47,810 nt of DNA from Candidatus Methylomirabilis sp. (GCA_037442485.1 JBBIQE010000007.1:1-47810); one strand, 5' to 3'; shown: positions 4,032-10,620, counted from the stretch's first letter. Notes: generated by a model from the letters alone, not told the origin. Translations and numbers: made by a program.

Positions 4032-4087
4032 GACTCCCTCCTCCGTGTTCGGGCTCGGCCGCTTCTGCCCTCACGAATCCGCGCCAC

Positions 4088-4116
4088 ACGGTAATCAAAG
4101 GAGCACACCCGGTCAA
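4088..4116 (-). promoter_or_regulatory. sigma70-type promoter of the TAXI-TRAP/mutT/mutY operon
   Basis: Minus strand TTGACC-N17-TACCGT, about 55 nt upstream of the receptor start. Confidence 0.6.
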
Positions 4117-4286
4117 GGGATTTTTCCGCCAGCCGAACGGCCGCGTGGTGGTTCGGTCGGGCGAGCGCCAAAATGCTTGCGCGCCGACCTTTCCCCCTGT
4201 AAACATAGGGGGCCTTCGGCGGCCAGCCCCCCGGCCTGGGGGCCGGCCTGCTGACCGCCGACGGTTCCCACCGGCACGGAGGGCTC

Positions 4287-4877
4287 ATGACCGAACCTGG
4301 ACGGGCGCGAGGATCGTCCGCGGAGGGGACGCACCGGGTGGGGTCGGGCTGGATCGCCCGGGCCATGCTCCTCGCCGCCCTGATCGCCACGGCGGCTTCC
4401 ACTGGAGCCGGGACCGCCTCCGGCGGGATGGGCATGGCCCGCGTCGGAAGCCCTGCGCCGGATTTCACCTTGCGGCTGCTCGACGGAAAGAGCGTCACGC
4501 TCTCCAGCTTCCGGGGCAAACCCGTTCTCGTCAACTTCTGGCACTCGGGGTGACCGCACTGCCAACGGGAGGCTCCCGTTCTGGAGCAGTTGTACCGGAA
4601 GTATCGCGGCAAGGGTTTGGTCTTCCTCAGCGTCAACGTCGCATGGGACAAGGAGGCTCCTGCGAGGAAATTCGTGGAGGACTACCGCCTGTCCCTCCCG
4701 GTGGGGCGCGACGCGGACGGGAAGATCGGCGACCTCTATGGCATCGACGCCACGCCGATCACCCTTTTCATCGGAAAGGACGGCAAGCTCCTGGATCGCC
4801 TGGAGGGCGCCCCGGAGGACGTGAAGGCCGTCGAGGCCGGGCTCGAGCAGCGGATCAACTGGCTGCTGGCAGGCTGA
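4287..4877 (+). CDS. Selenocysteine-containing TlpA/ResA-family thiol-disulfide oxidoreductase (UxxC), exported
   Basis: ORFs 4287-4553 and 4590-4877 are in the same frame. The TGA at 4551-4553 gives [16 protein letters not shown], aligning with [16 protein letters not shown] of the neighbouring paralog. A SECIS-like hairpin follows immediately. N-terminal hydrophobic signal, GGAGG RBS and cis-Pro loop DATP are present. Confidence 0.88.
4554..4590 (+). promoter_or_regulatory. Candidate bacterial SECIS element
   Basis: Upper stem AACGGGA(4564-70)/TCCCGTT(4574-80) with apical GGC; lower stem ACTGC(4558-62)/GCAGT(4586-90). The apical loop is 17 nt after the UGA. Confidence 0.75.
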
Positions 4878-4923
4878 GGCCCGGCGGCCGGGCGGAGAGG
4901 CTCTGGGGCGCGAAAGGACGGCC

Positions 4924-5517
4924 ATGGGAAAGCGCCGGTTGGCCAAGGCACCCTCGGCAAGGGAGAAGCGACAGGAGAAGTCCCGGCGAACCTTCTGGAT
5001 CGTGGGCATCGGGCTGGCGGTGGTGATCGGCGGGCTGATCGGGCTGCTGATCTACCAGAGCCAGCAGCCGCCCGGGGCCCTGGCCGGAAGGCCTGCGCCG
5101 GACTTCACCCTCAGGCTGCTCGACGGGCAGAGCGTCGCGCTCTCCAGCCTGAGGGGCAAGCCGGTGGTGGTGAACTTCTGGGCCTCCACCTGCCCGCACT
5201 GCCAACGGGAGGCTCCCGTTCTGGCGCAGGTGTACGAGAAGTACAAGGACCAGGGCCTGGCGTTTCTCAGCGTCAACGTCGCCTGGGACACCGAGGGCGG
5301 AGCGAAGAAATTCGTGGAGGCCTACCACCTGCCCTTCCCCGTGGGGCGCGACGCCGGCGGGAGGATCGCCGGCCTGTACGCCGTGGACGCCACGCCGACC
5401 ACCTTCTTCATCGGGAAGGACGGAAAGGTCGTGTCCCGGGTGGACGGGGCCCCGGAAGAGGTCGCGGCGATCAGGGCCGGCCTGGAGCAGCGGATCGAAA
5501 AGCTCCTGGCGGGCTGA
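4924..5517 (+). CDS. TlpA/ResA-family thiol-disulfide oxidoreductase (CPHC), membrane-anchored
   Basis: Basic N-terminus plus one TM helix, APDFTL, VNFWASTCPHC and DATP. About 100/141 residues identical (manual count, ungapped) to the upstream Sec paralog. Confidence 0.92.
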   Translation: MGKRRLAKAPSAREKRQEKSRRTFWIVGIGLAVVIGGLIGLLIYQSQQPPGALAGRPAPDFTLRLLDGQSVALSSLRGKPVVVNFWASTCPHCQREAPVLAQVYEKYKDQGLAFLSVNVAWDTEGGAKKFVEAYHLPFPVGRDAGGRIAGLYAVDATPTTFFIGKDGKVVSRVDGAPEEVAAIRAGLEQRIEKLLAG

Positions 5518-5671
5518 CCTCGCGCAGCCCGCCCCGCCTCGGTGGGAGAGCTTGCAAGTCCAGGCCGCCTTCCCCGGTTTGCGGGCGGCCGCACCCTCTC
5601 GTGCAGTCGGTGTGGGGGGTGGCTCGGTCTTTCCGGCAACCGGGAACCCTCCCGTGTTCCCCTCGGGACCG

Positions 5672-5877: not shown

Positions 5878-5907
5878 TTGACGCGGGGGACATCCGATCC
5901 GTAGGAT
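5878..5907 (+). promoter_or_regulatory. sigma70-type promoter of the hox operon
   Basis: TTGACG-N18-TAGGAT about 110 nt upstream of hoxF; a CATCC/GGATG inverted repeat overlaps the spacer and -10. Confidence 0.5.
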
Positions 5908-6018
5908 GCGGCCTGGGAGGGGCGTCGAATCGTTGGCGCGGCGTATTCGGCCCGTCAGCGGGGCGCCCGGGACCGGGCGGCTCGCTGTCGGGCCATCCCG
6001 TACCCAGTGAGGCCGCCC

Positions 6019-7836
6019 ATGCTCGCGCTCGCCAGGGACATCCGGGAGATCGGCAGGACCTTCGGCAACGACCCCACCCGTCTGCTGGACATCCTCCGGG
6101 CCGTTCAAGCCAAGTACGGCTGCGTCTCCAGTCGGGCCCTCGACCTCATCGCCAAGACCGTGCAGGTCCCGCGGGTCGAGGTGGAGGGCGTCGTCTCGTT
6201 CTACGCCTTCCTCTCCGTGCAGCCCAAAGGCCAGGTGGTGATCCGCCTCTGCAACGACGTGATTGACGAGATGTTCGGCGCCGAGAAGGTGGCCCAGGCC
6301 TTCATGGAGGAGCTGGGCATCGGCCTCGGCGAGACCACGCCGGACGGCAAGATCACGCTGGAGACGACCCCCTGCATCGGGATGTGCGACCAGGCGCCGG
6401 CCGCCCTGGTGAACGACGTGGTCGTGACGTCCCTGTGGAGCGACAAGGCCCGCGAGATCGTCCGGCTGCTCCGGGAGACCGGCGATCCCCGGCGGCTGGT
6501 GCGGCGCCTCGGCGATGGCAACAACGCCCACCCCCTGGTCCGCGCCATGGTCCACAACAACATCCGGCGCGAGGGACCGGTGGTGCTGGCCCCCCTGACC
6601 CCCGGGGGGCCGCTCCGCAAGGCCCTGGCCATGAGTCCGGTCGAGGTCATCAACGACATCAAGACCTCGCGCCTGCGCGGCCGGGGCGGGGCGGGCTTCC
6701 CCACCGGGATGAAGTGGGAGTTCACCCGGGCCGCCGAGGGCGGAAGGAAGTGCGTCATCTGCAACGCGGACGAGGGCGAGCCGGGCACGTTCAAGGACCG
6801 GGTGATCCTGACGGAGAATCCGGACCTCGTCTTCGAGGGCATGACCATCGCGGGCTATGCCATCGGCGCGGACCTCGGCATCCTCTACCTCCGGGCCGAG
6901 TACGCCTACCTGCGGGCCTTCCTGGAGCAGGTGCTGCAGGCGCGGCGCGACCAGCATCTGCTGGGCCAGGACATCCTGGGCAAGCGGGGCTTCCACTTCG
7001 ATATCCGCATCCAGATGGGGGCGGGCGCTTACGTCTGCGGCGAAGAGACGGCCCTGATCAGCTCCTGCGAGGGGCAGCGCGGGGACCCGAAGAACCGGCC
7101 CCCCTTCCCGGCGCAGCGGGGCTACCTGGGCATGCCCACCACCGTCAACAACGTGGAGACCTTCTGCTGTGCCGCCCGCATCCTGGACAACGGCCCCGGC
7201 TGGTTCGCCGCCATCGGCTCGCGCGGGAGCACCGGGACCAAGCTGCTGAGCGTCTCGGGCGACTGCTCCGGCCCCGGCGTGTACGAGGTGCCCTTCGGGA
7301 TCCCGCTGCGGGAGCTTTTGACCCTCGTCGGCGCCGAGGATGCCCAGGCCGTCCAGGTGGGCGGTCCCTCGGGCCGGATGGTGGGGCCCAGGGACTTCGA
7401 CCGGACCATCTGCTACGACGACCTGGCCACGGGGGGGGCGGTGATGGTCTTCGGCCCGAACCGCAACCTCCTCAAGGTCGTGCTGAAGTTCCTGGACTTC
7501 TTCGTCGAGGAGAGCTGCGGCTACTGCACCCCCTGCCGCGTGGGCACGCGCCTGATGCAGCAGAGGCTGGAGGCCCTCCTGGAGGGCCGGGGCGAGGTCG
7601 GCGACCTGGAGTATTTGCAGGAGCTCGGCGCCACCCTGAAGCTCGCCAGCCGCTGCGGCCTGGGGCAGAGCGCGGCCAACCCGGTGCTCAGCAGCATCCA
7701 GGCCTTCCGCCCCGCCTACGAGGCCCGGCTCCAGGCGCGGCCGCGGGAGATGGGCCGCCCCTCCTTCGACATCCGGGCGGCCCTGCAGGAGGCCGAGCAG
7801 CTCACGGGCCGGCCGTCCGAACTCTTCGCAGGGTGA
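6019..7836 (+). CDS. hoxF: NAD-reducing [NiFe]-hydrogenase diaphorase large subunit (NuoE-like + NuoF-like fusion)
   Basis: N-terminal NuoE-like domain (VVSFYAF, CIGMCDQAPA), then LRGRGGAGFPTG, CNADEGEPGTFKDR, GAGAYVCGEETALISSCEG and ESCGYCTPCRVG...CGLG. ATG 6019 has a GAGG RBS. Confidence 0.93.
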   Translation: MLALARDIREIGRTFGNDPTRLLDILRAVQAKYGCVSSRALDLIAKTVQVPRVEVEGVVSFYAFLSVQPKGQVVIRLCNDVIDEMFGAEKVAQAFMEELGIGLGETTPDGKITLETTPCIGMCDQAPAALVNDVVVTSLWSDKAREIVRLLRETGDPRRLVRRLGDGNNAHPLVRAMVHNNIRREGPVVLAPLTPGGPLRKALAMSPVEVINDIKTSRLRGRGGAGFPTGMKWEFTRAAEGGRKCVICNADEGEPGTFKDRVILTENPDLVFEGMTIAGYAIGADLGILYLRAEYAYLRAFLEQVLQARRDQHLLGQDILGKRGFHFDIRIQMGAGAYVCGEETALISSCEGQRGDPKNRPPFPAQRGYLGMPTTVNNVETFCCAARILDNGPGWFAAIGSRGSTGTKLLSVSGDCSGPGVYEVPFGIPLRELLTLVGAEDAQAVQVGGPSGRMVGPRDFDRTICYDDLATGGAVMVFGPNRNLLKVVLKFLDFFVEESCGYCTPCRVGTRLMQQRLEALLEGRGEVGDLEYLQELGATLKLASRCGLGQSAANPVLSSIQAFRPAYEARLQARPREMGRPSFDIRAALQEAEQLTGRPSELFAG

Positions 7837-7852
7837 GCCGGGGGACGAGAAC

Positions 7853-8575
7853 ATGGGCGACAGCTTCCTCTTCAGCATCGACGGGATCCAGCTCGCGGGG
7901 ACCCCGGGGCAGACGATCCTCCAGGCGGCCGACCAGGCCGGCATCTACATCCCGCGCCTCTGCGCCCACAAGGACCTCGTGCCCTTCGGCGCCTGCCGGG
8001 TCTGCACCGTGATGGTCAATGGCCGCCCCCAGGCGGCCTGCACCACCCCCGCCGCGGCCGGCATGGTGGTGGAGAACGACACCGAGCCGCTCACGAGGCA
8101 CCGCATGAGCCTGGTGGAGATGCTGTTCGTGGAAGGGAACCACTTCTGCATGTTCTGCGAGAAGAGCGGCCACTGCGAGCTGCAGGCCCTGGCCTACCGG
8201 TTCGGCATCCTGGCCCCGCGCCACCCGTACCAGTTCCCGCGGCGGGACCTCGACGCCAGCCACCCCGACGTCCTGATCGACCGCAACCGCTGCATCCTCT
8301 GCGCCCGCTGCGTCCGGGCCTCGCGCGACCTGGACGGCAAGCACGTCTTCCAGTTCGTGGGCCGCGGTGCGCACAAGAAGATCTGGGTGAATGCCGAGGC
8401 GCGTCTCGCCGACACGGACCTCACCCGCGCCGACCGGGCCGTGGACATCTGCCCGGTGGGCGCCATCCTGCGCAAGCGGATCGGCTACCGGGTGCCGGTG
8501 GGCCAGCGCCCCTACGACGTGAAACCCATCGGCTCGGACATCCAGGCCAGGCGACCGGCCGCGCCGGGCCGGTAG
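7853..8575 (+). CDS. hoxU: NAD-reducing hydrogenase diaphorase small Fe-S subunit (NuoG N-terminal-like)
   Basis: IPRLC..GACRVC..AC [2Fe-2S], HFCMFCEKSGHC, CILCARCVRAS and CPVGAI. Confidence 0.92.
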   Translation: MGDSFLFSIDGIQLAGTPGQTILQAADQAGIYIPRLCAHKDLVPFGACRVCTVMVNGRPQAACTTPAAAGMVVENDTEPLTRHRMSLVEMLFVEGNHFCMFCEKSGHCELQALAYRFGILAPRHPYQFPRRDLDASHPDVLIDRNRCILCARCVRASRDLDGKHVFQFVGRGAHKKIWVNAEARLADTDLTRADRAVDICPVGAILRKRIGYRVPVGQRPYDVKPIGSDIQARRPAAPGR

Positions 8576-8592
8576 CGGAGAGGAAGGCCGCC

Positions 8593-9138
8593 ATGGCGAA
8601 ACCCCGGGTGGCAACGGCATCGCTGGCGGGCTGCTTCGGCTGCCACATGTCGCTGCTCGACATCGACGAGCGGATCCTGGAGCTCTTCGAGCTGGTGGAG
8701 CTGGACCGGTCCCCCCTGAACGACCTCAAGCACTTCACCGGCCGGTGCGCCATCGGCCTCGTCGAGGGGGGCTGCTGTAACGAGGAGAACGTGCGCGTCC
8801 TGCGCGAGTTCCGCGCCCACTGCGACCTCCTGGTGTCGGTGGGGGAGTGCGCCATCGGCGGCGGCATCCCCGCCATGCGAAACGGTCTGCCCCTGCGGGA
8901 GTGCCTGGACGAGGCCTACCGGAAGGGGCCCACGGTGTTCAACCCCTCGGGGGAGTACCCCAGCCACCCGGACCTCCCCCTGCTCCTGGACAAGGTCTAC
9001 CCCTGCCACGAGGTCGTCCAGGTGGATCACTTCATCCAGGGTTGTCCGCCGCCGGCCGACGCCATCTGGGCGACCCTCACGGCGCTGCTCCGGCAGCAGC
9101 CCGTGCGGCTCCCCTACCCGCTCGTGAAATACGATTGA
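8593..9138 (+). CDS. hoxY: [NiFe]-hydrogenase small subunit (one [4Fe-4S])
   Basis: LAGCFGCHMS, VGECAIGGGIPAMRN and GCPP; 181 aa. Confidence 0.93.
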   Translation: MAKPRVATASLAGCFGCHMSLLDIDERILELFELVELDRSPLNDLKHFTGRCAIGLVEGGCCNEENVRVLREFRAHCDLLVSVGECAIGGGIPAMRNGLPLRECLDEAYRKGPTVFNPSGEYPSHPDLPLLLDKVYPCHEVVQVDHFIQGCPPPADAIWATLTALLRQQPVRLPYPLVKYD

Positions 9139-9153
9139 GCGCGGAGACATGCT

Positions 9154-10620
9154 ATGGCACCCGTTGCCGGAAGCCCCCGGAAGATCGTCATCCAGCCCCT
9201 CACCCGTGTGGAGGGACACGGCAAGGTCACCATCCTGCTGGACGAGGAGGGGAGGGTGGAGCAGGCGCGGCTCCACATCGTGGAGTTCCGCGGCTTCGAG
9301 CGCTTCATCCAGGGCCGGCCCTTCTGGGAGGTCCCGGTCCTGGTGCAGCGGCTGTGCGGCATCTGCCCCGTCAGCCACCACCTGGCGGCGGCCAAGGCCA
9401 TGGACCGGATCGTGGGCGGGGAGCAGCTCACCGCTACGGCCGAGAAGGTGCGCCGGCTCATGCACTACGGCCAGATCCTCCAGTCGCACGCGCTGCACTT
9501 CTTCCACCTGGCCTCGCCGGACCTGCTCTTCGGCTTCGAGGCCGACCCCGGCCTCCGCAACGTGATCGGCGTGGCCCGGAAATACCCGGATCTCGCCCTC
9601 CAGGGGGTGAGGCTGCGCCAGTACGGGCAGGAGATCATCCGGGCCACCGCGGGCAAGAAGATCCACGGGACGGGCGCCATCCCCGGCGGCGTGAACAAGA
9701 ACCTCTCCATCGCCGAGCGGGACGGCTTCCTCACGGACATCGGGCAGATCCTGGACTGGTGCCGGGGCGCCCTCGCCCTCGCCCGTGACTACACCTCGGA
9801 GCATCTGAAGGAGCTGGCCGATTTCGGCTCCTTCGATTCGAACCACCTGTCGCTGGTCCGATCCGACGGCGCCCTGGATCTTTACCACGGCAACCTCCGC
9901 GCCATTGACGCGGCGGGCGGGAAGATCTTCGACCAGGTGGACTACCAGCACTACCTCGACTACATCGCCGAGGAGGTCAAGCCCTGGTCCTACATGAAGT
10001 TTCCCTTCCTCAGGTCGCTCGGCCCCGAGCGGGGCTTCTACCGCGTCGGCCCGCTGGCCCGCCTGAACGCCTGCGACTTCATCGACACCCCCGAGGCCGA
10101 GGCCGCCCGCAGGGAGTTCCGGGCCCTCACGGGCGGCCGGCCCAACCAGATCACCATGGCCTACCACTGGGCCCGCATGATCGAGCTCCTGCACGCGGCC
10201 GAGAAGATCCAGGCGCTGCTTCACGACCCGGATCTGCAGGGCAGCGACCTCGTGGTGGCGGGGGGGGCGCGGCGGGAGGAGGCCGTGGGCCTCATCGAGG
10301 CCCCGCGCGGGACGCTGTTCCACCACTACCGGGTAGACCGAAACGACCAGGTCGTCCGCTGCAACCTGATCGTCTCCACCACCAGCAACAACATGCCCAT
10401 GAACCTGGCCGTGGAGCGCGTGGCGCGCGAGTACCTGTCGGGGGCGGAACTCACGGAGGGGCTGCTCAACCGGATCGAGGTGGCCATCCGGGCCTACGAC
10501 CCGTGCCTGTCCTGTGCCACCCACGCCCTGGGCCAGATGCCGCTCCTGGTCGAGCTGCGGGACGCCGCGGGGCGGCTGCTGGACCGGAAGGTGCGGGGAG
10601 AGCCGGGCCATGGCGGATAG
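9154..10620 (+). CDS. hoxH: Group 3d [NiFe]-hydrogenase large subunit
   Basis: TRVEGHGK, RGFE, L1 RLCGICPVSHH, EAPRGTLFHHY and L2 DPCLSCATH followed by a cleavable C-terminal tail. Confidence 0.95.
   Translation: MAPVAGSPRKIVIQPLTRVEGHGKVTILLDEEGRVEQARLHIVEFRGFERFIQGRPFWEVPVLVQRLCGICPVSHHLAAAKAMDRIVGGEQLTATAEKVRRLMHYGQILQSHALHFFHLASPDLLFGFEADPGLRNVIGVARKYPDLALQGVRLRQYGQEIIRATAGKKIHGTGAIPGGVNKNLSIAERDGFLTDIGQILDWCRGALALARDYTSEHLKELADFGSFDSNHLSLVRSDGALDLYHGNLRAIDAAGGKIFDQVDYQHYLDYIAEEVKPWSYMKFPFLRSLGPERGFYRVGPLARLNACDFIDTPEAEAARREFRALTGGRPNQITMAYHWARMIELLHAAEKIQALLHDPDLQGSDLVVAGGARREEAVGLIEAPRGTLFHHYRVDRNDQVVRCNLIVSTTSNNMPMNLAVERVAREYLSGAELTEGLLNRIEVAIRAYDPCLSCATHALGQMPLLVELRDAAGRLLDRKVRGEPGHGG

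Follow-up and report, generated by a model that had tools for sequence, protein, structure and literature searches.

A tandem of ResA/TlpA-like redoxin genes in a Methylomirabilales genome: a selenoprotein and a probable Sec-to-Cys convert with a retained SECIS hairpin

Two adjacent genes at positions 4287 to 5517 of a Candidatus Methylomirabilis sp. contig (GCA_037442485.1, JBBIQE010000007.1:1-47810) encode closely related redoxins, the first (gene 1) with selenocysteine (Sec, U) and the second (gene 2) with cysteine in the active site. The whole analyzed stretch of 47,810 nucleotides (nt) is referred to here as the window. With a probability of about 0.8, we consider the pair to be a tandem of an exported ResA/TlpA-like selenoprotein in which one copy has turned into a Cys form and has kept its Sec insertion sequence (SECIS). 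The observation of a Sec/Cys tandem of paralogs, made in the first-pass annotation of this DNA, is confirmed. The source is a metagenome-assembled genome (MAG) of the Methylomirabilales (Methylomirabilota, candidate division NC10), 3.07 Mb in 196 contigs and 70.7% complete. The features on which the argument rests are the following.

4287..4877, + strand: gene 1, ResA/TlpA-like redoxin selenoprotein of 196 amino acids (aa), active site U89-P-H-C92 (open reading frame with TGA read through, BLASTP, Pfam, NCBIfam)
4551..4553, + strand: Sec codon TGA of gene 1, opposite Cys90 of gene 2 in the alignment
4564..4580, + strand: SECIS hairpin of gene 1, stem of 7 bp (AACGGGA/UCCCGUU) and loop GGC, beginning 10 nt 3' of the UGA (comparison across Sec genes)
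4924..5517, + strand: gene 2, Cys paralog of 197 aa, active site C90-P-H-C93 (uninterrupted open reading frame, BLASTP, Pfam, NCBIfam)
5191..5193, + strand: Cys codon TGC of gene 2, at the presumed former Sec position (sequence)
5204..5220, + strand: putative remnant (fossil) SECIS hairpin of gene 2, identical to that of gene 1 in all 17 bases (inside a 31-nt exact repeat)

The gene pair, its protein family and its relatives

Gene 1 is an open reading frame (ORF) only when the TGA at 4551-4553 is read through, and ordinary ORF calling divides it into pieces of 88 aa and 95 aa. A spacer of 46 nt separates it from gene 2 on the same strand. BLASTP aligns residues 51-196 of gene 1 with residues 52-197 of gene 2 without gaps (103/146 identical, 71%, E=1e-77), and the shared ungapped domain of 141 aa with about 100 identities that had been counted by eye was about right. 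The TGA of gene 1 falls in the column of the first Cys of the gene 2 CPHC motif (FWHSG-U-PHC versus FWAST-C-PHC), where C90 of gene 2 stands opposite U89 and 13 distant homologs sharing the peptide likewise have Cys. The residue immediately before the motif (position -1) is G in gene 1 and T in gene 2, and the lack of a Trp just before CxxC in both proteins was thus correctly annotated; Trp is found at this position in more distant Sec relatives of the order (ASWUPHC in L065, L100 and L101). The paralogs have diverged to a synonymous distance (dS) of ~0.5 and a nonsynonymous distance (dN) of 0.19, giving a dN/dS of ~0.39, and both genes look intact.

Both proteins score well above the Pfam cut-off for AhpC-TSA/Redoxin (E 3e-25 and 1.6e-29; PF00578 at 89 bits). 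The best NCBIfam match for both is ResA (NF002854), with scores of 108.7 bits (gene 1) and 119.2 bits (gene 2) that stay below the cut-off of 170; the CcmG/DsbE models (TIGR00385, NF011941) reach 48.5 and 58.1 bits where 123 are required, and the TlpA and StoA models are also below cut-off for both proteins. The model for WAxxUGC ResA-like selenoproteins (NF041054) gives 55.3 and 56.4 bits versus a cut-off of 300, and the CxxC position is occupied here by U-P-H-C. Since all of these scores lie below the NCBIfam cut-offs, neither protein is assigned to a named family. Among solved structures, those of ResA are the nearest (4nmu, E 1.9e-28); CycY, DsbE/CcmG and TlpA come next. Each protein combines the features of the TlpA/ResA-like superfamily, namely a Redoxin/AhpC-TSA domain, the U/C-P-H-C motif and a hydrophobic N-terminal segment of predicted topology, and both would be placed in the extracytoplasmic ResA/TlpA-like thioredoxin group, outside its named families. 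Like ResA, CcmG (DsbE) and TlpA (4nmu, 1st9, 1kng, 1jfu), they share the fold family, the N-terminal anchor or signal and the position of CxxC; unlike those proteins, they score below the family cut-offs, have G or T rather than W at position -1, and coexist with a separate CcmG candidate.

Families of AhpC/TSA-type selenoproteins with a UxxC motif ("Prx-like thiol:disulfide oxidoreductase", "Prx-like 1") are already established, as excerpted from PMC1794560, PMC2398784 and PMC1088965. The present proteins resemble Prx-like and Prx-like 1, as those excerpts describe them (Zhang et al. 2006, PMC1794560; Zhang & Gladyshev 2008, PMC2398784), in having an AhpC/TSA-Redoxin domain, Sec in place of the first Cys of CxxC and a SECIS directly downstream. 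The combination of a pfam00578 domain and UxxC that marks Prx-like 1 is present here as the PF00578 match and UPHC, by shared features and not by alignment to the family's own sequences. The Prx-like members named in the excerpts of PMC1794560 and PMC2398784 come from Deltaproteobacteria and marine metagenomes, and the comparison with them is by description, not by sequence.

Homologs were found in all 60 of the relatives searched in six frames, and at least 55 of the 60 have a match with a single in-frame TGA among the matches listed. The TGA lies at the exact active-site position in 29/29 best-hit loci of relatives, within a nearly invariant stretch of 11 residues, and at the same position in every further Sec gene extracted, giving 48 distinct Sec genes overall. 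Relatives in contig collections were found with the post-Sec alignment A2 as the source of patterns; a whole-protein pattern scan of the contigs, with patterns that spanned the Sec position or variable parts, found no relatives. T67 and P68 of A2, which we take to be the cis-Pro loop, are invariant. The part of gene 1 that lies 3' of the hairpin has a dN/dS of 0.13-0.43 against four orthologs (89 codons), and this purifying selection downstream of the hairpin implies that the UGA of gene 1 is read through. The Sec form appears to be the normal and ancestral state of the protein in Methylomirabilales. Among public protein clusters (5.8 billion), only 16 full-length relatives of gene 2 were found at E 1e-30, the best with 66% identity. 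Ten of the 11 public relatives examined (P0003-P0013) belong to the L121-type and L049-type Cys lineages discussed below. The eleventh, P0008, is a Sec form: this public gene call of gene 1 type has W both in place of Sec and at its C terminus, the TGA evidently having been translated as Trp.

The MAG encodes SelB (356 bits) and, adjoining selB, a tRNA-Sec (selC; 79 bits, anticodon TCA). It has two selD genes (C9:27062-27988 and C65:17006-17950; L005, L006), and in each of them a single in-frame TGA lies in a G-U-x-x-K context. The annotation of the pair as exported thioredoxin-fold redox paralogs, one with Sec and one with Cys, in a host that decodes Sec, is supported.

The SECIS hairpin and the Cys codon of gene 2

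What identifies the TGA of gene 1 as a Sec codon rather than a stop? In the wording excerpted from PMC1088965, a bacterial SECIS is a stem-loop that closely follows the UGA and has a G in its small apical loop, and 4564-4580 is such a structure. Across the 48 distinct Sec genes 335/336 stem cells are paired, and the hairpin is near-invariant, wobble bases included; in the same alignment the wobble bases directly upstream (CCN, CAY, TGY) and downstream of the hairpin vary freely. Two stem pairs show compensatory AU-to-GC double changes, in four cells. At distinct sites encoding [U/C]xHCQREAPV, codon choice goes with the use of Sec or Cys: the string CAACGGGAGGCTCCCGTT, 18 nt long, occurs unchanged in 45/46 Sec sites, the single remaining Sec site ending in GTC, and 13/16 Cys sites use other synonymous codons for the same peptide, with a broken stem. 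Three Cys sites retain the full 18-nt string, namely gene 2 and the two members of a tandem from a metagenome, L121. The TGA and the identical 18-nt string also occur, at 28-33% identity, in four Sec loci that carry the label delta proteobacterium (L106, L116, L117, L118; match near 6001-6040); the codons are different in those Cys relatives of these loci that encode the same peptide (L105, L107-L115). Synonymous codons for Q-R-E-A-P-V can form hardly more than one perfect hairpin, which could explain the identity of the delta-proteobacterial string. That identity may reflect shared ancestry, gene transfer or convergence on the only good hairpin that the peptide allows.

Gene 2 carries the same hairpin behind a Cys codon. 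The exact repeat 4554-4584 = 5194-5224 (31 nt) is the longest identical run of the pair, the next longest being 17 nt. The codons CAA, GCT and GTT of the gene 2 hairpin are three of only 16 A/T-ending codons among the 197 of the gene, and since such codons are so rare there, the hairpin codons would have been inherited rather than set by codon usage. A 52-row tree, built after masking of the Sec/Cys column, needs four Sec/Cys changes, and all Cys rows of the clade are nested among Sec rows; gene 1 groups with the first genes of L121, G019 and G017 (support 99/93). In two relatives, G008 and G017, both members of the tandem are Sec forms (FWHSGU, followed by FWAST/GU). The tandem in L121 (1234-1827, 1874-2461) has Cys in both genes (TGT, TGC) with both hairpins intact. 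The hairpin is gone from an older Cys lineage (G013/G014, L049/L050); altogether three of four Cys-converted lineages keep it. Because gene 2 is nested among Sec orthologs and its hairpin is intact, it is read as a Sec-to-Cys convert, and the Cys copy of the window appears to be a lineage-specific one. The idea of the pair as a Sec/Cys module does not hold up, in that the nearest tandems are Sec/Sec (G008, G017) and that of L121 is Cys/Cys; the mixed state is not conserved.

Would the survival of the hairpin in Cys genes require a further function? Codon identity at same-residue positions elsewhere in the gene, relative to the nearest Sec orthologs, is 68% for gene 2 and 77% and 81% for the L121 genes. 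The chance of all three hairpins surviving, with the conversions placed at the bases of the branches, is 0.31 x 0.46 x 0.53, or roughly 0.08. Retention is compatible with neutral decay, and no extra function of the hairpin is required.

Sec-to-Cys conversions in Sec-decoding organisms, some with remnant SECIS-like structures, are described in the excerpted text of PMC1794560. Gene 2 resembles the Mannheimia FdhA and Desulfitobacterium HesB-like cases given there, with a Cys codon followed by a SECIS-like hairpin in a host that retains Sec decoding. Unlike those cases, as excerpted, the convert described here stands in tandem with its Sec paralog, its hairpin is identical in 17/17 bases, and both the Sec/Sec and the Cys/Cys state occur in close relatives. 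For the Prx-like family the same excerpts list 0 Sec-to-Cys events, and here there are four in one genus-level clade. A Sec-to-Cys change with a remnant SECIS is thus already known as a type of event, and no new mechanism is revealed. In the literature on selenoproteins with Methylomirabilis, or on fossil SECIS with bacteria, titles and the opening parts of abstracts contain no description of such a pair.

N-termini, transcription and neighborhood

The further features of the pair and of the region upstream are listed below.

4086..4118, + strand: conserved upstream box (ACACGGTAATCAAAG ... GGTCAAGG), a possible operator (MAFFT alignment of upstream regions, 7/12 rows)
4177..4205, + strand: promoter-like element TTGCGC, 17 nt, TAAACA (blocks aligned in 11/12 upstream regions)
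4278..4283, + strand: ribosome-binding site GGAGGG of gene 1 (sequence; aligns with AAGGAG just before the ATG in relatives)
4350..4400, + strand: weak hydrophobic segment W22-S38 of gene 1, signal-peptide-like, with a possible AxA-type cleavage site near ATAAS (hydropathy; the cleavage is predicted)
4914..4918, + strand: ribosome-binding site AAGGA of gene 2, within the 46-nt spacer (sequence)
4993..5055, + strand: transmembrane anchor F24-Y44 of gene 2, behind a Lys/Arg-rich leader of net charge +8 (hydropathy)

Both proteins have 60-61 residues up to the PDF motif, arranged as a charged leader followed by a hydrophobic segment. The best 19-residue Kyte-Doolittle mean is 1.56 for gene 1, with a core of nine residues, and 2.59 for gene 2, with a core of 20 residues. 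The leader of gene 2 is the genus-typical MGKRRLAKAPS..KEKRQ.KS (net +8), which is also found on the Sec forms of most congeners. In gene 1, W22 aligns with W22 of the leader of relatives, and most of the charges have been lost (net +2). Intermediate leaders are found in G017, where the first gene starts MGRARLARTPSPEEKRRAKS, and in L121, where it starts MGRRQWVPAPSPKGERRAKS. The N-termini had been annotated as unrelated; bridged by these two first genes, and with the same layout, they appear instead to be diverged versions of one leader. As for the proposed split between a cleavable signal in the Sec protein and a transmembrane anchor in the Cys protein, the difference in hydrophobicity stands, and the distinction between cleavage and anchoring is plausible from the hydropathy profiles.

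The cytoplasmic leader ahead of the anchor, MGKRRLAKAPS.KEKRQ.KS.W (window positions 4924-4989 and relatives), is strikingly conserved across the genus. A Sec subclade of the same genus (L028, L031, L036, L037) has a short twin-arginine-like leader, MQRREFI/MRRRQFL, and family f7 forms have classic signal peptides ending in AHA/AQA.

Gene 1 and gene 2 are probably co-transcribed from a promoter upstream of gene 1. The blocks of the promoter-like element are CTTGC[GA]C and TGTA.A., absent only from the L072 row, which is the intergenic spacer of a pair; a strict sigma-70 scan did not report the element at 4177-4205. A scan for sigma-70 promoters and terminators found nothing promoter-like or terminator-like between the genes; near the pair it found a promoter-like site at 5878-5907 and a minus-strand terminator-like site inside gene 2. 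The box at 4086-4118 was recovered in the window and in L075, L076, L078, L121, L085 and L089.

Upstream in the window, on the other strand, are genes for a TAXI-type TRAP transporter, a NUDIX protein and an HhH-GPD glycosylase. In relatives, mutY-like and NUDIX genes recur upstream, with or without the TRAP transporter, and the downstream genes vary, as judged by similar ORF starts, not by Pfam. No ccdA, ccm, sco or msr neighbor was found among the 14 loci listed. The first-pass annotation had found no DsbD/CcdA partner in the window, and there is indeed no DsbD_TM match on the contig of the pair (C7), a whole-genome search giving only C22 and C26. Elsewhere in the genome, C22 has a DsbD_TM gene and C26 a DsbD_2 gene beside a DsbA-like gene. 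A ccmF - redoxin - ccmH cluster is located on C21 (L063:1-3328), and its redoxin (174 aa, Cys) is likely the true CcmG of the genome. Because this separate ccmF-ccmG-ccmH cluster exists, the pair is unlikely to be a cytochrome c maturation reductase. A search for ResB, which belongs to System II of cytochrome c biogenesis, found no gene in this MAG of 71% completeness. Downstream of the pair, at 6007-10620, lies a Hox-type NAD-linked [NiFe] hydrogenase cluster with fused NuoE/NuoF-like, 2Fe-2S/4Fe-4S, small and large subunits; the large subunit ends in DPCLSC, with Cys and not Sec.

Alternative explanations and significance

The preferred explanation can be set out as follows. The pair would be a tandem duplicate of an extracytoplasmic ResA/TlpA-like thiol:disulfide oxidoreductase that is, as the norm of the order, a UxxC selenoprotein. 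SelB with Sec-tRNA(Sec) would read UGA 4551-4553 as Sec, directed by the hairpin 4564-4580 within the Q-R-E-A-P-V codons. Gene 2 would have arisen from a Sec ancestor by a single base change, TGA to TGC, leaving intact a hairpin that is now unneeded. Both proteins would be exported with a diverged leader, gene 2 by a full membrane anchor and gene 1 by a weaker, signal-peptide-like segment. Outside the cytoplasm both would reduce disulfides, with electrons presumably supplied by a CcdA/DsbD-type membrane protein encoded elsewhere, and the substrate is probably not apocytochrome c. The conversion would leave the host with one selenium-dependent and one selenium-independent isoform, the latter being a plausible consequence of the change.

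Several observations weigh against this explanation. An Rfam scan of 4200-5600 (E up to 10) found no SECIS family and only chance hits of microRNA type. The folding energy of the hairpins is unremarkable for DNA so rich in G+C, compared with shuffled sequences (z -0.94 and -1.0), so the SECIS call rests on comparison, not on thermodynamics. Five of the seven stem pairs never vary among the 48 Sec genes, and the 13 hairpin-less Cys sites come from other phyla, which somewhat weakens the codon control. The grouping of gene 2 with the second gene of G008 and with G003/G012 is weakly supported (87/38). Codons after U/C are identical in 10/10 cases versus 60/90 elsewhere (P=0.017), only modestly unusual for the pair alone. 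The conversion can be called "recent" only in the sense that it postdates the divergence from the nearest Sec ortholog sampled. Finally, selA was not found with two models in the MAG, itself 70.7% complete; it is present in 18/20 congeners, and both congeners without it are incomplete assemblies.

The missing selA, and the splitting of gene 1 by standard ORF calling, would fit a gene 1 that is a pseudogene or encodes a short product of 88 aa, with the TGA as a true stop. This is hardly credible in view of the conservation of TGA at the catalytic position across the order, the purifying selection downstream, the Sec-linked hairpin, and the presence of selB, selC and selD. Might the TGC of gene 2 instead be an artefact of assembly or strain, the real population having TGA in both genes? 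The genome is a MAG, and the read-level data are assembled contigs (Logan, k=31) of four public runs, which drop rare variants and, in run X1, break exactly at the 31-nt repeat (4554-4584 = 5194-5224). A contig of X1, possibly the source sample, nevertheless covers 4555-5223 with 0 differences and supports TGC, and no variant is listed at 5191-5193 in 4/4 runs, of which X2 and X4 have no useful cover of the Cys codon; we judge an artefact to be very unlikely. Two contigs of run X3, which belongs to a different study, differ here: the first passes directly from 4549 to 5190, with 640 nt missing at the repeat, and the second covers 4755-5045. The first may represent a genuine single hybrid gene, or it may be a route taken through the repeat by the k=31 assembly. 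The hairpin of gene 2 might, instead of having had little time to decay, have been maintained through gene conversion with gene 1 as donor or through an ongoing function of the RNA, as the length of the shared 31-nt run and the hairpins of three of the four Cys-converted lineages would allow. Orthologs of gene 2 in other genomes carry the same string, so gene conversion is not needed, and the older L049/L050 Cys lineage has lost the hairpin; with retention compatible with neutral decay even at the extreme value of ~0.08, we hold this account to be improbable. Because Sec/Sec, Sec/Cys and Cys/Cys tandems, all with intact hairpins, occur among close NC10 relatives, the kept hairpin could conceivably act as a reversible one-base switch, populations moving between TGA and TGY as the selenium supply changes, an idea that is speculative and on balance unlikely.

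Methanogens have Sec/Cys isoenzyme pairs, Vhu/Vhc and Fru/Frc, that are encoded in separately regulated operons and for which selenium-dependent switching has been shown. The NC10 pair is like them in providing Sec and Cys versions of one enzyme in one genome, and unlike them in forming one apparent operon and in being known from sequence alone. An adaptive backup of this kind, with the Cys enzyme substituting for the Sec copy when selenium is scarce, was the first suggestion made for the pair. It would account for a host that keeps Sec decoding and yet holds a Cys copy beside the Sec copy, with both genes apparently intact at a dN/dS of ~0.39. However, the mixed state is not conserved among the nearest tandems and no separate promoter is seen for gene 2; termination at the UGA under selenium shortage would, moreover, leave ~370 nt untranslated before gene 2 and be expected to lower its expression. 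We therefore regard an adaptive backup as possible but doubtful. The second suggestion, an electron relay from the anchored Cys enzyme to a soluble Sec enzyme, draws on the difference in N-terminal hydrophobicity only. The two proteins are recent paralogs with the same active-site context, and relatives mostly have a single gene of the subclade or unlinked copies (G019), and a relay is highly improbable. A lineage-specific conversion of one copy of a tandem selenoprotein, with its SECIS retained, is the explanation that we prefer.

The pair adds a widespread exported selenoprotein, for which no curated NCBIfam model reached cut-off, to the Methylomirabilota (NC10). Standard gene callers split the gene, and the public record P0008 reads its TGA as Trp. 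The family supplies a natural control for the bacterial SECIS, in which one peptide is encoded by different codons that are sorted by Sec or Cys. The occurrence of the Sec/Sec, Sec/Cys and Cys/Cys states of one tandem in close relatives is useful for dating the decay of the SECIS after the loss of Sec.

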